This document shows positions 38,166-63,405 of a DNA stretch of 64,000 nucleotides, in pieces; position 1 is the first letter of the stretch; each line of letters opens with the position of its first letter. A program made the position numbers and the translations under genes. Source of the stretch: Clostridiales bacterium (GTDB lineage: Bacteria; Bacillota; DSM-16504; Desulfitibacterales; JAICDB01); assembly GCA_020063565.1 (NCBI GenBank), contig JAICDB010000009.1, positions 65,393 to 129,392 on the forward strand, in the 5' to 3' direction. A model generated the notes under the pieces. It saw nothing but the letters and a program-made list of their open reading frames with translations. It had not been told where the DNA came from and ran no database searches.

Positions 38166-38178
38166 TATTTCAAGAGGT

Positions 38179-38303
38179 TGTTCGAAAAGTCCGCGCGAAA
38201 TCCACTTCGAATTTCGGCGTTGGCTTGTCTCCTGCGCTGCTCACCCGGCACTTAACCAGACAATTTGCCTTCTTCTCGTGTCTTTCGTGCTCCTTTTCGA
38301 ACA
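38179..38303 (-). repeat. Long copy A of the repeat family (reverse orientation, variant central module)
   Basis: Plus strand TGTTCGAAAAGTCCGCGCGAAATCCACTTCGAATTTCGGCGTTGGCTTGTCTCCTGCGCTGCTCAC...CGTGCTCCTTTTCGAACA. Abuts the znuB stop codon. Confidence 0.85.
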
Positions 38304-38316
38304 CGCACTTCAAAAA

Positions 38317-53534: not shown

Positions 53535-54137
53535 ATGTGCAGACAATTAACCCCCTGGGAAGAGGCTGTACAATTTCACGGGCATGCCTGTCCCGGGCTG
53601 GCAATGGGCGTCAGGGCCAGTCAAATCGCTTTGGAAAAACTGGGTGTAGAGAGGGCTGAAGATGAAGAACTGATAGCAATTGCTGAAACTGACGGCTGCG
53701 GTGTAGACGGTGTACAGGTCATAACTGCCTGTACACTGGGTAAAGGAAACCTCTTTTTAAAGGATTACGGAAAGCAGGTCTATACAATTGCCAGCAGGAA
53801 AACAGGTCAAGGCGTAAGGGTGTATTTTAAGCCGTTTGATTTCTCCGCTGCAGAGAAGGATTTGCGCAAAAAGGTTTTTGCAGGAGAAGCCACTCCCGAA
53901 GAACAGAAGGAATTTAAGAAGATGCAGGAAAAATTGATAGATCATATTCTCAATTCCACCGCTGAAGAGATTTGTGATGTGCAGGTGAAAAAAGTGGAAC
54001 TCCCCGGGAAGGCACGCATTTTCCAGTCGGTACGCTGTGAAAAATGCGGTGAATACTTTATGGAACCAAGGGCCAGGTTCCAGGACGGTAAAATTGTCTG
54101 CCTGGAATGCTTTGAGGACTATAACAGGCAAATTTAG
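53535..54137 (+). CDS. FmdE-domain protein with C-terminal zinc ribbon
   Basis: FHGHACPGLAMG and ETDGCGVDG motifs of the FmdE family. C-terminal CEKCGE...CLEC. Confidence 0.75.
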   Translation: MCRQLTPWEEAVQFHGHACPGLAMGVRASQIALEKLGVERAEDEELIAIAETDGCGVDGVQVITACTLGKGNLFLKDYGKQVYTIASRKTGQGVRVYFKPFDFSAAEKDLRKKVFAGEATPEEQKEFKKMQEKLIDHILNSTAEEICDVQVKKVELPGKARIFQSVRCEKCGEYFMEPRARFQDGKIVCLECFEDYNRQI

Positions 54138-54274
54138 AAAAAGTGAGACCGATCTAGGCCGGATCGGTCTTGTAAATTTTTTAAGGTAATGCTAAATTTA
54201 AATGGCAAGAATGTGGTAAAATAAAATTAAATGTGGTAATATAAAAGTTATTATAATTAAAAGAGGTGTACTAT

Positions 54275-54724
54275 ATGAAGCTTGCACTTGGTAGTGATCA
54301 CGGCGGGTTTAATCTAAAGGAAAAGATTAAAGAATATTTAGATGAAAAGGGAATTACATATGAAGATATGGGTACATATAATTCAGAGTCAGCTGATTAT
54401 CCTGACTTTGCTAAAAAGGTCGCGGAAGCTGTGGCAAAGGGTGAATATGAACGGGGAATTTTAATATGTGGAACCGGAATTGGAATAGGGATTGCCGCAA
54501 ACAAGGTTCCCGGAATTAGAGCAGCCCTCTGTCATGATACCTTTAGCGCGAGATATGCCAGGGAGCACAACAACGCCAATATCCTGACAATGGGTGAAAG
54601 GGTAATCGGTCCAGGTCTTGCAATAGAAATAGTGGACACCTGGTTAAAGGCCGAGTTTAGCGGTGGTAGACATGAACGCCGTGTAAATAAGATCACCGAA
54701 ATAGAAAAAGAATACAGTATTTAA
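54275..54724 (+). CDS. rpiB: Ribose-5-phosphate isomerase B
   Basis: GSDHGG, ICGTGIGIGIAANK, RHERRV motifs. ATG 54275 has an AGAGG RBS. Confidence 0.9.
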   Translation: MKLALGSDHGGFNLKEKIKEYLDEKGITYEDMGTYNSESADYPDFAKKVAEAVAKGEYERGILICGTGIGIGIAANKVPGIRAALCHDTFSARYAREHNNANILTMGERVIGPGLAIEIVDTWLKAEFSGGRHERRVNKITEIEKEYSI

Positions 54725-54736
54725 CTTAAAAATAAG

Positions 54737-54841
54737 TGTTCGAAAAGGAGCACGATAGACACGAGAAGTTCAAGGCGGCGCAGACTTTGAGCAGCGGAGC
54801 GTACATAGAAGTACGTGAGCAGCGGAGAAGTCAAGACATCC
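54737..54841 (+). repeat. Copy B of the repeat family (right module internally deleted)
   Basis: TGTTCGAAAAGGAGCACGATAGACACGAGAAGTTCAAGGCGGCG...GCGTACATAGAAGTACGTGAGCAGCGGAGAAGTCAAGACATCC. Confidence 0.85.
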
Positions 54842-54875
54842 TATTTAAAAAATTTTATAGATAGGGGAGATAGTA

Positions 54876-56120
54876 ATGGAGCTGGAACTTATTAAAAATG
54901 TAGACCCGGAAATTGCGGAAGCTGTTCAAAAGGAATTGGACAGGCAGGAAGGTTTTCTGGAAATGATTGCTTCAGAGAACTTTGCCAGCCCGGCAGTAAT
55001 GGCTGCCATGGGAACAGTCCTCACCAACAAGTATGCGGAAGGATATCCCGGCAAAAGATATTACGGTGGCTGCCATTGTGTAGATATCGCTGAGGACCTG
55101 GCAAGGGATAGGGCTAAGGAGATTTTTGGGGCAGAGCATGCCAACGTGCAACCCCATTCGGGAGCCCAGGCCAATACGGCAGTCTATTTTGCATTTTTAA
55201 ACCCGGGAGATAAAGTCCTGGGAATGAGCCTTGCCCATGGGGGACACTTAACTCACGGAAGTCCCGTCAATATTTCCGGAAAGTATTATGAATTCTATGC
55301 TTACGGGGTTGATCCCGAAACAGAAACCATCGACTATGATGAGCTGGCTAAAAAGGCCAGAGAAGTAAAGCCAAAGATGATAGTGGCCGGCGCTAGCGCT
55401 TATCCCAGAATTATTCATTTTGATAAAATCAGGGAAATTGCAGATGAAGTAGGGGCCTTAATGATGGTGGATATGGCGCATATTGCAGGATTAGTGGCTG
55501 CAGGACTGCATCCTAACCCTGTACCTTATGCAGATTTTGTAACAAGTACCACCCACAAAACGCTGCGTGGCCCCAGAGGCGGTTTGATTCTCTGCAAGGA
55601 AAAATATGCCAAGGAAATAGATAAGGCTGTTTTCCCGGGCATCCAGGGCGGTCCCCTCATGCATATCATTGCTTCAAAGGCTGTAGCATTTAAAGAAGCG
55701 ATGAAGCCGGAATTTAAGGAATATCAAGAACAGGTAGTCAAGAATTGTAAGGCATTTGCAGAAGCAATGATTGAAGAAGGCTTCCGTCTTGTTTCGGGCG
55801 GCACCGACAATCATATGGTGCTTGTTGACTTAAGACCCAAGAATGTAACAGGTAAGGAAGCAGAGGAAATCCTGGACTCTGTTCATATTACCGTAAATAA
55901 AAACGCAATTCCCAATGATCCTGAAAAGCCTTTCGTAACAAGCGGTGTGAGGATAGGTACTCCTGCACTTACCACCAGGGGCTTAAAAGAAGAAGAAATG
56001 AAAGTTATAGCACAATGTATCAATAAGGCTCTAACTTCAAAAACTGAAAAAGAGCGAGATGAAGTTAGAGAAACAGTAGCGGAAATCTGTGCTAAATTTC
56101 CACTTTACAAAAATATTTGA
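54876..56120 (+). CDS. glyA: Serine hydroxymethyltransferase
   Basis: 414 aa. PLP site [14 protein letters not shown]. The last two codons and the stop are supplied by repeat copy C. Confidence 0.95.
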
Positions 56121-56258
56121 AAAGGAGCACGAGAGACACGAGAAGTTCAAGGCGGCGAAGGCTCCGAGCAGCGGAGCGTACATCTAAAAGTACGTGAGCA
56201 GCGCAGGAGACAAGCCAACGCCGAAATTCGAAGTGGATTTCGCGCGGACTTTTCAAAT
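56115..56258 (+). repeat. Copy C of the repeat family, flanked by a 20-bp perfect direct repeat
   Basis: Termini ATTTGAAAAG/CTTTTCAAAT. Direct repeats AAATTTCCACTTTACAAAAA at 56094..56113 and 56255..56274. Confidence 0.9.
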
Positions 56259-56351
56259 TTCCACTTTACAAAAAGTAGGTAAAAGTGTAAGGTATATCGG
56301 GGGACGCGAGGATTCTCGCTTCCCCAATTTACTGTTGGGAGGAAGATTTTA

Positions 56352-56981
56352 ATGTCTAAAGTACATACTTTTGATCACCCGCTGATTCAACACAAGCTTG
56401 GCCTCATCAGGGATAAAAATACCGGTTCAAAGGACTTCAGGGAGCTTGTTGAAGAAGTTTCCATGCTGATGGCTTATGAAGTATTCAGAGATCTCCCCCT
56501 GGAAGAGAAGGAAGTGGAGACTCCGATTTGTAAAACCACAGTTAAGTCTATCAGCGGCAAAAAGGTTGGAATCGTTCCTATCTTAAGGGCGGGTCTGGGA
56601 ATGGTCGAAGGAATGGTAAAGCTGATTCCGGCAGCTAAAGTAGGACACGTGGGACTTTACAGGGACCCCGAAACACTGAAGCCAGTGGAATACTACTGCA
56701 AGCTTCCCACTGACGTTGAGGAAAGGGACCTTATCATCGTTGATCCCATGCTGGCAACAGGGGGGTCCGCTTCAGCAGCCATAACATTTTTAAAAGAAAG
56801 GGGAGCCAAGAGCATTAAGCTTGTCTGCCTTATCTCTGCTCCCGAAGGCATTGAAAAGGTTCACTCCGAGCACCCGGATGTACCCATCTTTACAGCAGCG
56901 GTAGATGAAAAACTCAACGAACATGCTTACATAGTACCCGGCCTGGGAGACGCCGGAGACCGCCTCTTTGGAACCAAGTGA
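56352..56981 (+). CDS. upp: Uracil phosphoribosyltransferase
   Basis: 209 aa. ILRAGLGM and [13 protein letters not shown] motifs. Confidence 0.95.
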
Positions 56982-57048
56982 ATCAAGGGAAGCCAAGGGG
57001 ACGGTTCTTCTGGCTCATTGGGAAATTATGAATGAAAGGTGTATTATC

Positions 57049-57489
57049 ATGCGAAAGGATTGGGATACATACTTTATGGATATTGCCTTTGAAGTGGCCA
57101 CAAGGAGTACCTGCCCGCGGAGGTATGTGGGGGCTGTAGTTGTTAAGGACAGAAGAATTAAGGGGACAGGCTATAACGGCAGCGCCTCGAGACTGCCCCA
57201 CTGTATTGATGAAGGTTGTATGGTGGTCAATAACCACTGTATCAGGACTATCCATGCGGAAGTTAACGCGCTTTTAGAATGTACTCCTGAGGAGAGACAG
57301 GGCGCTACCATCTATGTCACGGACCGTCCCTGCGCCGAATGCTCAAAGCTTATTATTTCTACCGGCATTAAAAAAGTAGTATACGCCAGGGATTATCATA
57401 TTGATTACGACTGGTTCTCCCGGGCTCCCTGGGTAGAGGTAGTGCATTTAGCGGATTATGATAATCCTCATGCCAAAACCGGTAAATAG
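57049..57489 (+). CDS. comEB: dCMP deaminase (ComEB type)
   Basis: HAEVNAL and PCAECSKLI zinc motifs. ATG 57049 has an AAAGGTG RBS. Confidence 0.85.
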   Translation: MRKDWDTYFMDIAFEVATRSTCPRRYVGAVVVKDRRIKGTGYNGSASRLPHCIDEGCMVVNNHCIRTIHAEVNALLECTPEERQGATIYVTDRPCAECSKLIISTGIKKVVYARDYHIDYDWFSRAPWVEVVHLADYDNPHAKTGK

Positions 57490-57509
57490 TTGTATTGAAG
57501 GTGAATAAA

Positions 57510-58136
57510 ATGGAGAACTTAGCACTCCCAAAGCTTAACGCCCTTTCCCCCACTCTGGACTCTACACTCCTGAAAATGATGGAGGAGATAGGGGAGCTTT
57601 CGGAACAACTGGAACTCCTTGAAGAAGGTGAAGGCTCCATCAGTTCAGTGGCAGAAGAACTTCTTGACCTTGCCCAAACGGTTATTACACTCATGTTCGT
57701 TTTTGAAAAGGAAGGAATCAGAGTGCAGGAATGGTTGGACGACCATATTGAAAAGCTTATAGAAAAGAAATATCTCAAGCCTGAACGCAGAGACGAGATT
57801 CTACTTAAGTCTGACGGCAAATACCAGTATATTTCCTTACCGCAGTTAAATATCTCAGGGGTAACCCTGGATAAAACACTGCGCAATATCAACAAGGCAA
57901 TGGGAAGGCTTGCCCAGGCCAGGGGAAAGTTCAGGGGAATGAACGGTGAAAATTGCATGCCAAAATCATCTGAAGTTAACAAAATCATGGGACTTGCTCT
58001 TCTTCACGTTGCCCAGTGCTGCTATACGATGATGTATGTTCTCAAAAACCAGTACGGTGTAAATATCAAAGAAATTGTAGAGAGACATCTTGAAAAACTG
58101 GAAAGAAAAGGGTATTTAAGTTCCAAGGTGTCTTAA
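57510..58136 (+). CDS. Tandem MazG-like all-alpha NTP-pyrophosphohydrolase-fold protein (second half degenerate)
   Basis: N-half MMEEIGELSEQ...AEELLDLAQ. Both halves end H(I/L)EKL(I/E)(E/R)K(K/G)YL. The C-half has KAMGRLAQA in place of the EExGE motif. Confidence 0.5.
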   Translation: MENLALPKLNALSPTLDSTLLKMMEEIGELSEQLELLEEGEGSISSVAEELLDLAQTVITLMFVFEKEGIRVQEWLDDHIEKLIEKKYLKPERRDEILLKSDGKYQYISLPQLNISGVTLDKTLRNINKAMGRLAQARGKFRGMNGENCMPKSSEVNKIMGLALLHVAQCCYTMMYVLKNQYGVNIKEIVERHLEKLERKGYLSSKVS

Positions 58137-58170
58137 AGGTCATTGATGGCAGGCCTTTTTATTTCTTGTT

Positions 58171-58212
58171 AAATATATCTACAATATGGTATACTATATT
58201 GTAGATATATTT
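58171..58212. promoter_or_regulatory. 17-bp-arm perfect palindrome overlapping the mazEF promoter (likely autoregulation operator)
   Basis: AAATATATCTACAATAT-GGTATACT-ATATTGTAGATATATTT, 25 nt upstream of the mazE start. The spacer contains the -10-like TATACT. Confidence 0.6.
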
Positions 58213-58236
58213 GTATCATAAATAAGGAGGCGTTTT

Positions 58237-58485
58237 ATGGGAAGTTCAACAGTTAGAATAAGTGATGATACCTTAAAAATTCTAAGGGAGATTGCAAATC
58301 AAGCAGGAAAACCTATGCAGGAAATACTTGATAAAGCAATCGAAGAGTATCGGAGAAAGCAATTTCTGATAGAAGCTAATAAAGCTTATGCTAATTTAAA
58401 AAATAATCCTCAAAAATGGCAAGAAGAGCTAAAAGAAAGAAAAGAATGGGATTCTACTCTTGCCGATGGATTGGAGGATAAGTAA
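58237..58485 (+). CDS. mazE: Ribbon-helix-helix antitoxin (MazE/EndoAI type)
   Basis: 82 aa. N-terminal RHH (STVRISDDTLKILREIA). The stop abuts the mazF ATG. Confidence 0.75.
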   Translation: MGSSTVRISDDTLKILREIANQAGKPMQEILDKAIEEYRRKQFLIEANKAYANLKNNPQKWQEELKERKEWDSTLADGLEDK

Positions 58486-58824
58486 ATGAAACCTTCAAGG
58501 GGCGAGGTGTGGCTTGTAGAACTTAATCCTGTGCGTGGACATGAACAGGCAGGAACAAGGCCGTGCCTAGTTGTTTCAGTTGATTTATTCAATCATGGGC
58601 CGGCGGATCTTGCTGTTGTTTTACCAATTACTACTAAGAATAAAGGGATTCCTTTCCATGCTGAAATAATGCCACCGGAAGGTGGCTTGAAAGAGAGATG
58701 CTTCATAAAATGTGAGGATGTCAGGTCTGTATCAACAGATAGATTTATAGAACGGTGGGGTGCGGTATCTTTAGATACATTAGCATTAGTTGAAGATAGA
58801 CTGAGGATTTTGATGGGATTATAA
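58486..58824 (+). CDS. mazF: MazF/PemK-family mRNA interferase toxin
   Basis: RGEVWLVELNPVRGHEQAGTRPCLVVS is the hallmark PemK N-terminus. 112 aa. Confidence 0.9.
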   Translation: MKPSRGEVWLVELNPVRGHEQAGTRPCLVVSVDLFNHGPADLAVVLPITTKNKGIPFHAEIMPPEGGLKERCFIKCEDVRSVSTDRFIERWGAVSLDTLALVEDRLRILMGL

Positions 58825-58999
58825 TTTTACATAATGTTTTCTATTTATTATCCAATTATATTTCTGCTTAAAATTTTAAAGGTATTTTCATTTTTTTGTC
58901 GAATAGTAAACTCTTGTATGAAAAATAACATTCCACAGGAATTCTGTTACTGATTTGTATACTATCTTCCAATTTGCAGCAAACTTATTTTGTAGAGAA

Positions 59000-59025
59000 T
59001 GCTCGAAAGGAGCGCTTTTCGAACA
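59000..59025 (+). repeat. Hairpin-only copy E2 of the repeat family (imperfect)
   Basis: TGCTCGAAAGG-AGCG-CTTTTCGAACA, followed by TCCTCTTGAAGA as in E1 and copy A. Confidence 0.7.
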
Positions 59026-59056
59026 TCCTCTTGAAGACATACAGAGGAGGAATTTT

Positions 59057-60202
59057 GTGATTAAAGTTCTTACAGTATTCGGTACCAGGCCGGAAGCAAT
59101 CAAAATGGCTCCGCTTGTCAAAAAACTGGAAGAACATCCCGAGATTGAAAGTCGCGTGCTGGTTACGGCCCAGCACCGGGAAATGCTCGATATGGTTCTG
59201 GAGCTTTTCCAAATCAAGCCCCATTATGATTTAAATATCATGAAGGAACGCCAGACCCTTACCGGCGTAACCACAAGGGTCCTGGAAGGAATTGAAAAGG
59301 TTTTTGCAAACGAAAAACCTGATCTGGTTTTGGTGCACGGGGATACCACAACCACCTTTACGGCGTCCCTTGTTTCCTTTTATCATAAAATTTCTGTTGG
59401 GCATGTAGAGGCAGGCCTGAGGACTTCCAATAAGTACTCGCCCTTCCCGGAGGAGATCAACCGCAGGCTTACCGGCTCGCTGGCCGACCTGCATTTTGCA
59501 CCGACTGCCATTGCAAAAAACAATCTTCTCAGGGAAAACACTCCCGAAAAGGGAATTTTCATTACAGGCAACACTGTCATAGATGCGCTTTTAAGCGCTG
59601 TAAATAAAAACTTTGCTTTTGAGGGAAGACTAAAGAGTATAGATTTTGTCGGTAAAAAGGTAGTGTTGGTAACTGCTCACCGCAGGGAAAACTTGGGTCG
59701 TCCCATGGAAAACATCTTTACCGCACTTAAGGAAATTGTTGAAGGGAATGAGCAGGTGGAGGTAGTTTTTCCGGTTCATAAAAACCCCCGGGTTAGGGAA
59801 CACGCCTATAGTGTGCTGGCTGGGCTGGAGAGGGTCCATTTAATAGAGCCGCTTGATTACGAACCATTTATTAACCTCATGGACCGCTCTTACATGGTGC
59901 TCACAGATTCAGGGGGAATGCAGGAAGAGGCTCCGGCCCTTGGTAAGCCCGTACTGGTCCTGAGGGACACCACAGAACGCCCGGAAGCAGTGGAGGCAGG
60001 CACTGTAAAGCTTGTCGGAACAGATAAAAAACAAATAATAGCTGCTGCCATGGAGCTTCTCACAGATAAGCGGGAATATGACAAAATGGCAAATGCAGTC
60101 AATCCTTACGGGGATGGCAGGGCTTCAGAAAGAATAGTACAAGCCTTACTGTACTACTTTGGCAGGAAATCCCATCCCCCCCGGGAATGGAGCCTTAATT
60201 GA
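59057..60202 (+). CDS. wecB: UDP-N-acetylglucosamine 2-epimerase (non-hydrolysing)
   Basis: VFGTRPEAIKMAP, VHGDTTT, TDSGGMQEEAP motifs. GTG 59057 has an AGAGGAGG RBS; the upstream part of the track ORF crosses repeat E2. Confidence 0.88.
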   Translation: MIKVLTVFGTRPEAIKMAPLVKKLEEHPEIESRVLVTAQHREMLDMVLELFQIKPHYDLNIMKERQTLTGVTTRVLEGIEKVFANEKPDLVLVHGDTTTTFTASLVSFYHKISVGHVEAGLRTSNKYSPFPEEINRRLTGSLADLHFAPTAIAKNNLLRENTPEKGIFITGNTVIDALLSAVNKNFAFEGRLKSIDFVGKKVVLVTAHRRENLGRPMENIFTALKEIVEGNEQVEVVFPVHKNPRVREHAYSVLAGLERVHLIEPLDYEPFINLMDRSYMVLTDSGGMQEEAPALGKPVLVLRDTTERPEAVEAGTVKLVGTDKKQIIAAAMELLTDKREYDKMANAVNPYGDGRASERIVQALLYYFGRKSHPPREWSLN

Positions 60203-60368
60203 ATAATAACTGGTAATACTATTGTTTTTTAGGTTGTTTTTAATGAACTTGGCTAGAAGACATAGGTGTTGAAAGGACTTTCACAAAGTTATAACGAACA
60301 AGTAGTAAATATAAAAATTTAATATATAAAATAAGTTTTTCTTATATACCGACTAAGGGTGTTGAAAT

Positions 60369-60641
60369 GTGAAAAAGGACTATTTCAATTATGCCCGTTA
60401 TGCCAATTTTGCACTGTCCTTTGGCGTCACTTCAATAGCTGCCATGCTTCTTTGCTTTTTTGGAGGGCAGTGGCTGGATAAAAAATTGGGAACTTCACCT
60501 GCATTTCTATTAATAGGAATTTTTCTGGGAATAGCGGTAACCTTTAAGAGTCTCATGACAGAACTCAAGATTTTAAATAAATCAGAAGAGCTTTATGAGG
60601 AAGAGGAAAAGGAGAAGAACGGGGGAAAAAGCAAGCAGTGA
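60369..60641 (+). CDS. AtpZ/ATPase_gene1-like small membrane protein
   Basis: 90 aa, 2 TM (GGQWLDKKLGT motif). First gene of the atp operon. Confidence 0.65.
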   Translation: MKKDYFNYARYANFALSFGVTSIAAMLLCFFGGQWLDKKLGTSPAFLLIGIFLGIAVTFKSLMTELKILNKSEELYEEEEKEKNGGKSKQ

Positions 60642-61003
60642 AGTTTACCGATTTCAAAAACAGGGTTGTCCAGATTGTAGTTTTTGGTCTTATAACTGCG
60701 GCGCTGGGCTATTTGTTTGTGGATCACAGGTTTGGAATTGGAGTCATTGCCGGACTGCCTTTTAGCATATTTAATTTTTGGCTTGTGGCCAGCGCTGTGG
60801 AAGGACTTGAGGGAGAAAGTCCCCGCCGGTCCCAGAACAGGTTCATGCTGAGGTCTTTCCTGAGAATGTTTATTTCCATGGCTGTTCTGTTTATCTCAAT
60901 AAAGTGGGGCATTTACTTCATGTTAGGGGTTGCCATGGGACTTATCCTGCAAATGCTTACTTACTTTAAGGATGCTGTAAAATTGCTTTCCGGAAAGGGG
61001 TGA
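60638..61003 (+). CDS. atpI: ATP synthase protein I
   Basis: 121 aa, 4 TM. Located directly upstream of atpB. Confidence 0.7.
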   Translation: MKFTDFKNRVVQIVVFGLITAALGYLFVDHRFGIGVIAGLPFSIFNFWLVASAVEGLEGESPRRSQNRFMLRSFLRMFISMAVLFISIKWGIYFMLGVAMGLILQMLTYFKDAVKLLSGKG

Positions 61004-61007
61004 AATC

Positions 61008-61712
61008 GTGGAACATATAATGGAAAAGATAGTCCATAAACTGGCCCATGTAATGGAACATATCCAGCCGTATGTAGCTTATAAAGTAGGTCCCGTGGAA
61101 ATTACAGATACAGTTGTAACAACCTGGATTGTAATGATTGTTTTATTTGCAGTAATATTTTTCTTTACAAGGGGCTTGAGCGAAAAACCTACAACTAAAA
61201 GACAACACATCATTGAAATGATCGTAGGATTTATTGTGGATTTAATAGACTCTATTCTAGGCAAGCAAGGCAGAAAATATCTACCTCTAATCGGCACACT
61301 ATTCATATTTATTCTCTTTTTGAACCTGTCATGGTTTATACCGACATTGAAACCACCTACCATGGACTTAAGTACTACAGCGGCCTTTGCAGTAACAACT
61401 ATAATCATAGTTCAGCTGATAGGTATCAAGAAAAAGGGAATAGTCGGGTATGTGAAGCACTTTTTTGAACCAGTACCGTTTCTTTTTCCGCTAAATGTCC
61501 TGGAGGAGCTGGTAAAACCCTTCTCCCTTGCACTCCGTCTTTTCGGAAACATGTTTGGGGAAGAAATGGTAGTGACAATTCTTTTCATTATCTTGCCGCT
61601 GTTTTTGCCGGTACCAATCCAGGTACTGGGAGTGTTAATGGGTACAATCCAGGCTATGGTGTTTACAATGCTACCAGTTATATATATAGCTAGCTTCATA
61701 CACGGCCATTAA
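61008..61712 (+). CDS. atpB: F0F1 ATP synthase subunit a
   Basis: Conserved LALRLFGNMFGEE (essential Arg) motif. Confidence 0.92.
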   Translation: MEHIMEKIVHKLAHVMEHIQPYVAYKVGPVEITDTVVTTWIVMIVLFAVIFFFTRGLSEKPTTKRQHIIEMIVGFIVDLIDSILGKQGRKYLPLIGTLFIFILFLNLSWFIPTLKPPTMDLSTTAAFAVTTIIIVQLIGIKKKGIVGYVKHFFEPVPFLFPLNVLEELVKPFSLALRLFGNMFGEEMVVTILFIILPLFLPVPIQVLGVLMGTIQAMVFTMLPVIYIASFIHGH

Positions 61713-61739
61713 TTCCGGTAAACACCTCTTAATTTGTAA

Positions 61740-62000
<261 letters not shown>

Positions 62001-62032
62001 GATGGAACAACATCTTAAAATGAAAAGGTACA

Positions 62033-62057
62033 TACCGGGGGATATTTTCCCCCGGTA
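62033..62057 (+). other. Strong stem-loop immediately after atpE without a U-tract (mRNA stabiliser or processing hairpin candidate)
   Basis: TACCGGGGG-ATATTTT-CCCCCGGTA, 9-bp stem. Confidence 0.5.
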
Positions 62058-62158
62058 AAACTACAAGTGCCGTGTAAGACGCAAAGTATGGATTGTAAAA
62101 TGAATTCCGGGCGGGGTGAAGCTTCGAGTATATTTCCCTGCCTTTTTCAAAAAATGAG

Positions 62159-62305
62159 TGTTCGAAAAGGAGCACGAGAGACACGAGAAGTTCAAGGCGG
62201 CGAAGGCTTCGAGCAGCGGAGCGTAGTATAGAAACCTACGTGAGCAGCGCAGGAGACGAGCCAACGTAGAAATTCGAAGTGGATTTCGCGCGGACTTTTT
62301 GAACA
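62159..62305 (+). repeat. Long copy D of the repeat family, inside the atp operon (atpE-atpF spacer)
   Basis: TGTTCGAAAAGGAGCACGAGAGACACGAGAAG...GCGTAGTATAGAAACCTACGT...GAAATTCGAAGTGGATTTCGCGCGGACTTTTTGAACA. A partial extra fragment GGCGGGGTGAAGCTTCGAG lies near 62111..62129. Confidence 0.9.
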
Positions 62306-62350
62306 TCCTATAAAATAAAAACCCTGGTGTACAAGGGGGGGGACAGCTAT

Positions 62351-62857
62351 ATGGCTTCTGTACTGGAGGCCCTTCACTTCAACTTTTCAACCTTTATACT
62401 GCAAGCAATCAACCTTCTGATAGTGATGGGAGTTCTCTATATTCTTTTATACAAACCATTGATGAGGGTTATAGAAGAAAGGGACAACAAAATAGAAAAC
62501 AACCTGCAGGAAGCACAGTCTGCCAAGGAAGAGGCAAATGAACTCCTTGCTCAATATAAGGAGCAGTTGGGGCAGGCAAGGGAAGAAGCACGGGGTATTA
62601 TTGAAAATGCCAAGAAAATTGGCGACGATACCCGTGAGAGAATTATAGCGGAAGCCCGTGAAGAGGCCAACAAAACACTTGAAAAGGCTAAAAGAGAAAT
62701 TGAAACAGAAAAGGCAAAGGCCCTGGGAGAAATCCGCTCAGAAGCAGCTACTCTTGCAGTACTAGTTGCAGGTAAGGTTATCAAGAAGGAATTGGACACT
62801 GAGGAGCACAAAAGACTGGCTCAGGAATTTGTTGATGAGGTAGGCGAAGTACAATGA
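62351..62857 (+). CDS. atpF: F0F1 ATP synthase subunit b
   Basis: N-terminal TM then a long charged helix. ATG 62351 has a G-rich RBS. Confidence 0.9.
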   Translation: MASVLEALHFNFSTFILQAINLLIVMGVLYILLYKPLMRVIEERDNKIENNLQEAQSAKEEANELLAQYKEQLGQAREEARGIIENAKKIGDDTRERIIAEAREEANKTLEKAKREIETEKAKALGEIRSEAATLAVLVAGKVIKKELDTEEHKRLAQEFVDEVGEVQ

Positions 62858-63405
62858 GTGACAAATCCGTAGCTCGCCGTTATGCACAGGCTCTGTTCGA
62901 ACTGGGTCAGGAAAAGGATCTGCTGGAAGAAATCCAAAAGGATTTAAAGCTGGTCATAAACGTTATAGCTGAAAATGAAGAGCTGAAAAAGGTTGTAGAA
63001 CATCAACTGATTATGGCAGAAGACAAACAGGAAATATTTAAGGAAATCTTTGCAGATAAAGTCAATCCAATCACTCTCAATTTCCTGCTTCTTGTCATTC
63101 AGAAAAGAAGAGAGTTTTATCTCCAAAGTATGTATGAACAATTTCTGGAATATCTCGATGAATTCCGGGGAATTGAAGAAGCCCGGGTTAAATCTGCCGT
63201 TCAGTTAAGTGATGATATCAGGAAAAGCCTGGAAAAACAGCTCGAAAAGGTTACAGGTAAGAAAATTCGCCTGAAAACGGAGGTAGATCCGGAAATACTT
63301 GGCGGGCTCACTGTAAGAATAGGCGATAAGGTAATAGATGGAAGCATTAAAACCAGGTTAAATTTGCTCCAAAAACATTTACGGCAGACAGAACTTGCAA
63401 AGTGA
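62854..63405 (+). CDS. atpH: F0F1 ATP synthase subunit delta
   Basis: 183 aa. VARRYAQALFEL N-terminus and C-terminal GGL(T)VRIGDKVIDGS motif. Confidence 0.9.
   Translation: MSDKSVARRYAQALFELGQEKDLLEEIQKDLKLVINVIAENEELKKVVEHQLIMAEDKQEIFKEIFADKVNPITLNFLLLVIQKRREFYLQSMYEQFLEYLDEFRGIEEARVKSAVQLSDDIRKSLEKQLEKVTGKKIRLKTEVDPEILGGLTVRIGDKVIDGSIKTRLNLLQKHLRQTELAK

Follow-up and report, generated by a model that had tools for sequence, protein, structure and literature searches.

A mobile hairpin repeat has inserted into the last codons of glyA, the gene for serine hydroxymethyltransferase, duplicating 20 bases of the gene and supplying it with a new stop codon. The insertion lies in the window, the 64,000-nt stretch of DNA analysed here, which belongs to a metagenome-assembled genome (MAG) of 2.36 Mb in 29 contigs, 81% complete. 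The inserted repeat, designated copy C, is a member of a dispersed, non-coding, hairpin-forming family of MITE-like elements that is apparently undescribed. The insertion is a fairly ordinary mobile-element event in all but one respect, the length of the duplication it left in the target.

Results

The 20-bp repeat and the present end of glyA

The 20-mer AAATTTCCACTTTACAAAAA occurs at 56094-56113 and again at 56255-56274 with no mismatches, which confirms the initial observation that an exact duplication brackets copy C. No further match was found in the window with up to three mismatches allowed, and none of 100 shuffles contained two matches. The repeat is exactly 20 nt long, because the bases bordering its two copies differ (T against C on the 5' side, T against G on the 3' side). 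The two copies are separated by 141 nt of element-derived sequence (56114-56254, forward strand; T ATTTGAAAAGG...GGACTTTTC), which are missing from the empty allele described below and which form a long imperfect palindrome. As RNA, these 141 nt fold at -60.4 kcal/mol (z = -5.8). The whole palindrome of copy C extends over 56115-56258, the AAAT of the right 20-mer pairing with ATTT of the left arm, and its interior aligns with other full copies at 87-91% identity.

The present glyA allele, defined by its open reading frame and by Pfam SHMT matches on homologous contigs, occupies 54876-56120 of the forward strand and encodes 414 amino acids (protein P0001). It ends in CCA CTT TAC AAA AAT ATT TGA, translated as ...PLYKNI*. 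The left 20-mer, the same as the single copy in the empty allele, contains the true last codons of the gene (K F P L Y K and AA), and the Asn-Ile-stop that now follows uses T56114 and the adjoining ATTTGA, all of them element bases, as had been proposed from the sequence. The further proposal that the element terminus donated the stop codon needs a qualification: the TGA (56118-56120) is element-derived, but the left terminus that provides it is atypical (ATTTGA), and the canonical GTTCGA gives no stop in the glyA frame. The right 20-mer reads in frame as AAA TTT CCA CTT TAC AAA AAG TAG, or KFPLYKK*, and its TAG at 56276-56278 is the old glyA stop, stranded 3' of the element. The spacer to the next gene, upp (uracil phosphoribosyltransferase, open reading frame at 56352-56981, forward strand), measures 231 nt in the window against 73 nt in the empty allele.

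Empty and filled alleles

A search with GlyA retrieved a protein of 413 amino acids (P0002) that is 100% identical and has the C-terminus ...PLYKK; the gene end that the sequence-only reading had presumed to be ancestral exists in nature. Its contig (L021, 23.5 kb) comes from the Logan assembly of SRR23823798 and has the gene order of the window. The junction reads ...gctAAATTTCCACTTTACAAAAAgtaggtaaaag / gctAAATTTCCACTTTACAAAAAgtaggtaaaagtg, with a single 20-mer and without the element, establishing the 20-mer as the duplicated original end of glyA, and the TAG stranded in the window is here the functional stop. Alignment by blastn shows 100% identity with the window over 54836-56113 (1278 nt) and 56255-59278 (3024 nt); what these alignments have in common on the contig is precisely the 20-mer. 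The empty junction represents real sequence, since an assembly with k=31 cannot jump a 20-nt repeat. The filled allele, with the same junctions as in the window, was found in a JGI contig (L026) and in many Logan and ENA contigs. In two ENA MEGAHIT contigs (L027 and L035), copy C is connected via the repeat to copy B or another locus; these contigs are probably assembly chimeras formed through the shared repeat, and only their unique parts were used.

Two outgroup contigs (L023 and L024), with 85% amino acid identity, retain the rpiB-glyA-upp order and have a glyA-upp spacer of 28 nt, in which no element was found. The outgroup GlyA ends in ...PLYKNKI*, and its TAG with the ATTAAAGTAA behind it aligns with the downstream TAG of the window and the GTAAAAGTGTAA that follows there, not with the element-derived NI*. 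The outgroup stop and spacer align downstream of the element, and the right 20-mer with its TAG is therefore the original end of the gene. Comparison of the glyA-upp spacer with element-free sequence has thereby recovered the empty site in L021, and no element-free relative was found to have two 20-mers or a gene end matching the element-derived NI*. The species-representative genomes include no close relative; the nearest among them, from the same order and with ~70% DNA identity, lack the element. A metagenome scan with GTGCTAAATTTCCACTTTACA yielded one match, unrelated and by chance. Another contig (L022, 3001-4290) encodes a GlyA with 94% identity in another gene context, beside PALP and serine dehydratase genes, and with a C-terminal tail of its own, 17 residues long; it could be a second glyA lineage or a paralogue in a related organism.

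Comparison of SNPs places the filled allele on at least three haplotype backgrounds: that of the window and L026, that of L027 and L029, with 54387G and 54393T, and that of L028, with 18 SNPs in ~3.8 kb (~0.5%). The insertion is therefore older than the present diversity. The single empty allele has 54387G/54393T together with the mini form of copy A, as do the filled contigs L027 and L029, and neither its glyA nor the 3 kb that follow contain any private difference. Judged from these haplotypes, the element was probably lost from this allele at a later time, by precise deletion between the 20-bp repeats, with recombination as the alternative. The empty allele shows the gene end as it was before the insertion, but is probably not a surviving ancestor; in either direction, the 20-mer is seen in it to be the only duplicated material. 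With 20-bp repeats around a hairpin, the insertion would be precisely reversible.

The repeat family

The family numbers about 60-90 loci in the 2.4-Mb MAG: blastn recovers ~63 loci, and searches for the termini with at most one mismatch recover 54 left and 59 right ends in 2.36 Mb. Full copies measure 141-146 nt from core to core. The canonical copy consists of seven target nucleotides, TGAGT, GTTCGAAAAGGAGC ... GCGGACTTTTCGAAC, ATCCT and again seven target nucleotides, its terminal inverted repeats (T)GAGT-GTTCGAAAAGG and CCTTTTCGAAC-ATCCT being the outer part of the long imperfect palindrome. Copy-specific direct repeats of 7 bp are positioned exactly 5 nt outside both cores. These boxes average CTTTAAG, AT-rich and roughly palindromic, and co-vary within a copy in direct orientation (for example CTAACAG, CTTCTAG, TTAGAGT and CTTATA in this genome, and CTACCAG, CAAGAA and CATAAA in the three other genomes named below). 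Box identity within copies is 4.8 of 7 against 4.0 between copies in this genome, and 5.3 against 4.2 in the three others; the excess is significant by permutation in this genome and in the three others (p < 1/5000). The signature of the family is thus MITE-like, with a 7-bp target duplication whose fixed length is the family rule; copy C departs from it with 20 bp. Filled and empty sites occur between close relatives, the glyA-upp site carrying the element in the window and in L026 but not in L021.

Members with ~85-90% identity are present in Desulfoscipio geothermicus DSM 3669 (19 left ends), Desulforadius tongensis DSM 29799 (9 left ends) and the MAG Bacillota MES5 (11 left ends), which together hold 27 complete copies. 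The family is absent from the same-order relatives of the window, and among 400 other sampled genomes of the phylum one had a single exact match and one a single match with one mismatch. This patchy distribution suggests horizontal spread.

No description of the hairpin family was found in the literature searched, and Rfam covariance models run over copies A, C and D (54000-63000) gave no match at E <= 1. Pairs of left and right ends 0.4-6 kb apart enclosed no transposase-like open reading frame in the 81%-complete MAG. Known classes of small repeats were considered and rejected: REP/REPIN (RAYT) elements on account of the copy-specific 7-bp duplications, the element length of over 140 nt and the AT-rich ends; IS200/IS605 derivatives, which make no duplication and insert 3' of a fixed tetra- or pentanucleotide, because here the repeats flanking one copy differ from those of the next, left and right changing in concert (CTAACAG, CTTCTAG, CTACCAG and others); and integron attC-like sites because the ends do not fit RYYYAAC/GTTRRRY and the copies carry target duplications.

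Instability and orientation of other copies

Family elements are unstable in the population, copy A occurring in three states and copy B having undergone a 99-nt deletion. Copy A (54728-54850, forward strand), identified by family match and allele comparison in the rpiB-glyA spacer, has lost its right arm in the window and marks a polymorphic locus. A mini hairpin alone, in a spacer of 77 nt, is present in L021 (2930-2975), L027 and L028; L026 (2265-2470) has a full copy and the mini hairpin in tandem, with a 27-nt direct repeat, CTTAAAAATAAGTGTTCGAAAAGGAGC, in common; the window has the L026 form minus 86 nt. Copy B (38172-38310, reverse strand), the copy with arms closest to those of copy C, retains the remnant of a nested palindromic module. 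In a JGI contig (L043, 1700-1950) the whole module of ~107 nt (CCGGCACTTA...TAAGTGCCGG) replaces the apical hairpin, and it is from this module that the 99 nt are internally deleted in the window. The nested module is found at varying palindrome depths in other copies, and the copies of D. geothermicus contain a different nested palindrome (GGTGCCAGGTGTTGAAAGTTGAAAA...). Copy D (62150-62310, forward strand), in the atpE-atpF spacer, is full-length and canonical by family match and alignment.

Across the whole genome (G000), copies located between co-directional genes are oriented as the genes in 49 of 52 cases. RNA of the sense strand folds more stably than that of the antisense strand in all 23 long copies, by a mean of 9.6 kcal/mol. 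The co-orientation and the fold bias suggest that selection acts on the RNA or that insertion is strand-specific. Six near-identical left-half copies (C4:12525, C10:66887, C17:17712, C3:98468, C12:7631 and C25:178020) end after ...GTACATTGAAGTACGTGAGCAGC; they could be a truncated subfamily that was amplified recently, or mark an end-point at which deletions recur. Other gene ends also overlap the family: two genes take their TGA from the terminus TGAGT (C16:151044-151046 and C10:26240-26242), two take a TAA from the target box (C4:12527 and C3:114853), and one reads 80 nt into a left-half copy (C3:98468-98547).

Copy C against the family norm

Copy C alone, among the 49 complete copies of this genome and the 27 of the three others, has a long flanking repeat of unique target DNA. 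All other flanking repeats of at least 11 nt in these copies consist of adjacent or tandem element ends, which upholds the impression, gained by eye in the window, that no other copy has a comparable duplication. The repeat of copy C keeps the canonical register: the left gap, the right gap and the length of the repeat add up to 17, and copy C aligns without gaps with canonical copies. Its 20-mer consists of 9 nt, CTTTACA and 4 nt of target sequence, with CTTTACA located at the canonical left position of the 7-bp duplication (56103-56109, 5 nt outside the GTTCG core) and at the canonical right position (56264-56270). The target CTTTACA resembles the preferred site of the family (~CTTTAAG). The 9 nt to its left (AAATTTCCA), with which the right 20-mer begins, fill the positions of the canonical right terminus GAACATCCT, and the 4 nt to its right (AAAA) fill the TGAG positions of the left terminus. 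The 13 extra target bases thus stand one for one in place of terminal bases of the element, and the element-like remainder at the ends of copy C comprises only T56114 and the cores ATTTG and CAAA(T). Random mutation cannot give identity at 20 of 20 positions.

The end variants GTTTG/CAAAC, TAAAT and TTCCA are each seen in other copies. A donor copy with the required ends or with at least 99% identity was not found in the 81%-complete assembly, where the nearest internal match is 91%; TATTTGAAAAGG and TTTCAAATTTCC were not found outside copy C, the hits at C27:22267 and C4:83830 lying in coding DNA and resembling them by chance. A fold-back origin, with the left arm copied from the right, was considered and rejected, as the arms are imperfect complements with mismatches conserved across copies.

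Discussion

Origin of the long duplication

We tentatively favour, at somewhat less than an even chance, a one-off non-canonical insertion by a double template switch at AAA microhomologies, retained by selection, with the empty allele representing a loss. A single insertion of a family copy near the glyA stop would have preceded the diversification of the present population, with both junctions inside the element termini and not at the termini themselves. During replication or repair, the nascent strand would have left glyA after ...ACAAAAA, copied a donor element and returned 20 nt upstream, at GCT-AAA. From a donor with ends of the TAAAT-GTTTG...CAAAC type, both switches would fall on AAA microhomologies. 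Template switches of the FoSTeS/MMBIR type leave a duplication as long as the stretch from the point of departure to that of return, with 2-5 nt of microhomology at the junctions. Copy C may be likened to such events, the predicted donor being absent from the assembly. To our knowledge, no description exists of a bacterial MITE reaching a new locus by template switching.

Selection probably accounts for the survival of the unusual junction. A canonical insertion at the glyA site would replace the last two residues by a read-through tail of 57 residues (MSVRKGARET...FTKSR*), and the odd junction probably persisted because it adds Asn-Ile-stop where the canonical one would add this tail. We infer the switch itself, the type of donor, the part played by selection and the direction of change in the empty allele from the junctions and haplotypes described above, and several features fit the proposed switch poorly. 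Even from the best type of donor, ATTTG needs an extra G to A change. The A of ATTTG pairs with a target-derived T on the other side, a pairing that the template switch does not explain. The canonical register becomes a mere coincidence of the positions of AAA runs, or the product of an alignment anchored on ~7-12 imperfect bases.

The register would suit an insertion made by a transposase with an abnormally long (20-bp) or variable stagger, the latter as in YPAL/RU-2, of an element damaged or trimmed at both ends. We consider this unlikely, although CTTTACA resembles the preferred target and MITEs with duplications of 3-26 bp are documented in the account in PMC2229807. An apparently fresh canonical event of 7-8 bp at copy A indicates that mobilising activity may persist, and an unusual property of the family's own transposase is a possible cause of the 20 bp. 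A DDE-type enzyme, however, needs intact termini, and in copy C the outermost 4 nt of the left end and 9 nt of the right end are missing or replaced. Such a stagger does not predict the one-for-one replacement by target bases, the 75 other complete copies in four genomes have duplications of ~7 bp without length spread, and a transposase with matching ends was not found in the 81%-complete genome. The canonical geometry is also compatible with an ordinary 7-bp insertion at CTTTACA whose termini were later rewritten from the flanks by short-patch conversion, hairpin-directed repair or selected mutations. The age of the insertion, which precedes the 0.5% diversification, leaves time for such rewriting; the C-to-T change that makes the TGA would be strongly selected; and ATTT on the left and AAAT on the right are complementary, which looks like the correction of one arm by the other. 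This course of events still appears improbable: it takes at least seven specific changes to reach 20/20 identity, against ~10% divergence in the interior, and ordinary conversion requires more initial identity than 7 bp. Intermediates, with CTTTACA-TGAGTGTTCG on the left or CGAACATCCT-CTTTACA on the right, were found in none of ~15 contigs, all of which have the same junctions.

Much of the 20-bp identity might instead have pre-existed the insertion, if homology guided the element to a target resembling its own right end (AAAC TTCCA against AAAT TTCCA in glyA). Variants with a right-terminal TTCCA and a CAAAC core do occur in other copies (C27:207686 and C17), about 8 of 60 loci are tandem with or adjacent to the right end of another copy, and at C25:92016 a right-end-like AACATCTACTT lies upstream of the left end, in register. 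Across the 48 and 27 copies compared, however, the flanks outside the 7-bp repeat have no excess likeness to the element ends, the tandem copies have private variants in common, which suggests local duplication, and no donor of the required type turned up in the 81%-complete assembly; we regard guidance by homology as quite improbable. Capture of a trimmed, excised element by end-joining of the Ku/LigD type at a staggered double-strand break is a very improbable origin. Fill-in of 20-nt overhangs would produce a 20-bp duplication around an eroded fragment, and Ku and LigD are common among spore-formers. The register and the ATTT/AAAT complementarity would nevertheless go unexplained, and a search for Ku (PF02735) in the 81%-complete genome, positive for the B. 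subtilis control, found none, which speaks mildly against it. An artefact, in the form of a 20-mer repeat that existed beforehand or an assembly error in one allele, is barely credible: JGI, ENA and several Logan assemblies agree on the filled junctions; assembling the empty junction takes 31-mers across the 20-mer, none of which exist in the filled allele; and both the element and a second 20-mer are missing from the outgroups.

Relation to known repeats

The long duplication is the only unusual point of the copy C insertion, and it has a precedent. The YPAL/RU-2 repeats of Yersinia, as relayed by Delihas (2008, PMC2229807) from De Gregorio et al. (2006), display duplications of 3-26 bp, filled and empty sites, and co-translation with the upstream gene. 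The sequence-only reading took 20 bp as the mark of a different insertion mechanism; copy C is indeed an outlier to the 7-bp norm of its family, but the range known for YPAL/RU-2 embraces 20 bp, and the mechanism proposed here is our own reconstruction from the junctions. The present family resembles YPAL/RU-2, on that account, in being a palindromic non-coding repeat of ~150-170 bp with filled and empty sites and targets with dyad symmetry. The original glyA stop region (56264-56290 in the window) forms a small dyad, CACTTTAC-AAAAAGTAG-GTAAAAGTG, with the element inserted in its left arm, which recalls the preference of YPAL for targets at dyad symmetry. The two differ in their hosts, Firmicutes here and not Enterobacteria, and in the terminal inverted repeats and AT-rich target of the present family, and no relationship in sequence is expected between them. 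Variable duplication is moreover a property of the YPAL family as a whole, whereas here 75 complete copies have ~7 bp and only copy C a long repeat.

The nearest Firmicute analogue is bcr1 of the Bacillus cereus group (Okstad 2004; Klevan 2007, both as related in PMC3184786), a transcribed repeat of ~155 bp with 5-bp AT-rich repeats and compensatory changes. In that account bcr1 is likewise MITE-like and its distribution is not conserved between close strains; it differs from the present family in sequence, in having 5-bp and not 7-bp repeats and in folding as a cruciform of two stem-loops instead of one long nested hairpin. We found no report on bcr1 that mentions long duplications or the exchange of a nested module at the tip of the hairpin. 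Repeats fused to or read from open reading frames, altering C-termini and the 3' structure of mRNA, are represented in the account in PMC2229807 by Rickettsia RPE, the 107-bp form of Neisseria Correia/NEMIS, and ERIC. These are usually in-frame insertions or long fusions, whereas copy C changes two residues and brings an immediate stop from an atypical terminus.

Implications

Copy C provides a clean natural example of a small mobile hairpin that rewrote the stop of an essential gene, with both alleles public and the pre-insertion sequence visible. It also indicates that only some junctions survive, two residues being changed here against the 57-residue tail of a canonical insertion. The apparently undescribed family, with its 7-bp duplication, nested palindromic modules and strong co-orientation with transcription, is present in cultured Desulfotomaculia and is therefore experimentally accessible. 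Its repeats break metagenome assemblies or make them chimeric, and they displace gene ends, a point to consider when such MAGs are annotated. We also put forward, as a speculation more likely wrong than right by a wide measure, that the family can gain loci without a transposase, the replication fork copying an element by a double template switch at 3-nt microhomologies and so creating a reversible on/off polymorphism. If true, this polymorphism would edit the 3' end of an essential gene and the glyA-upp transcript.
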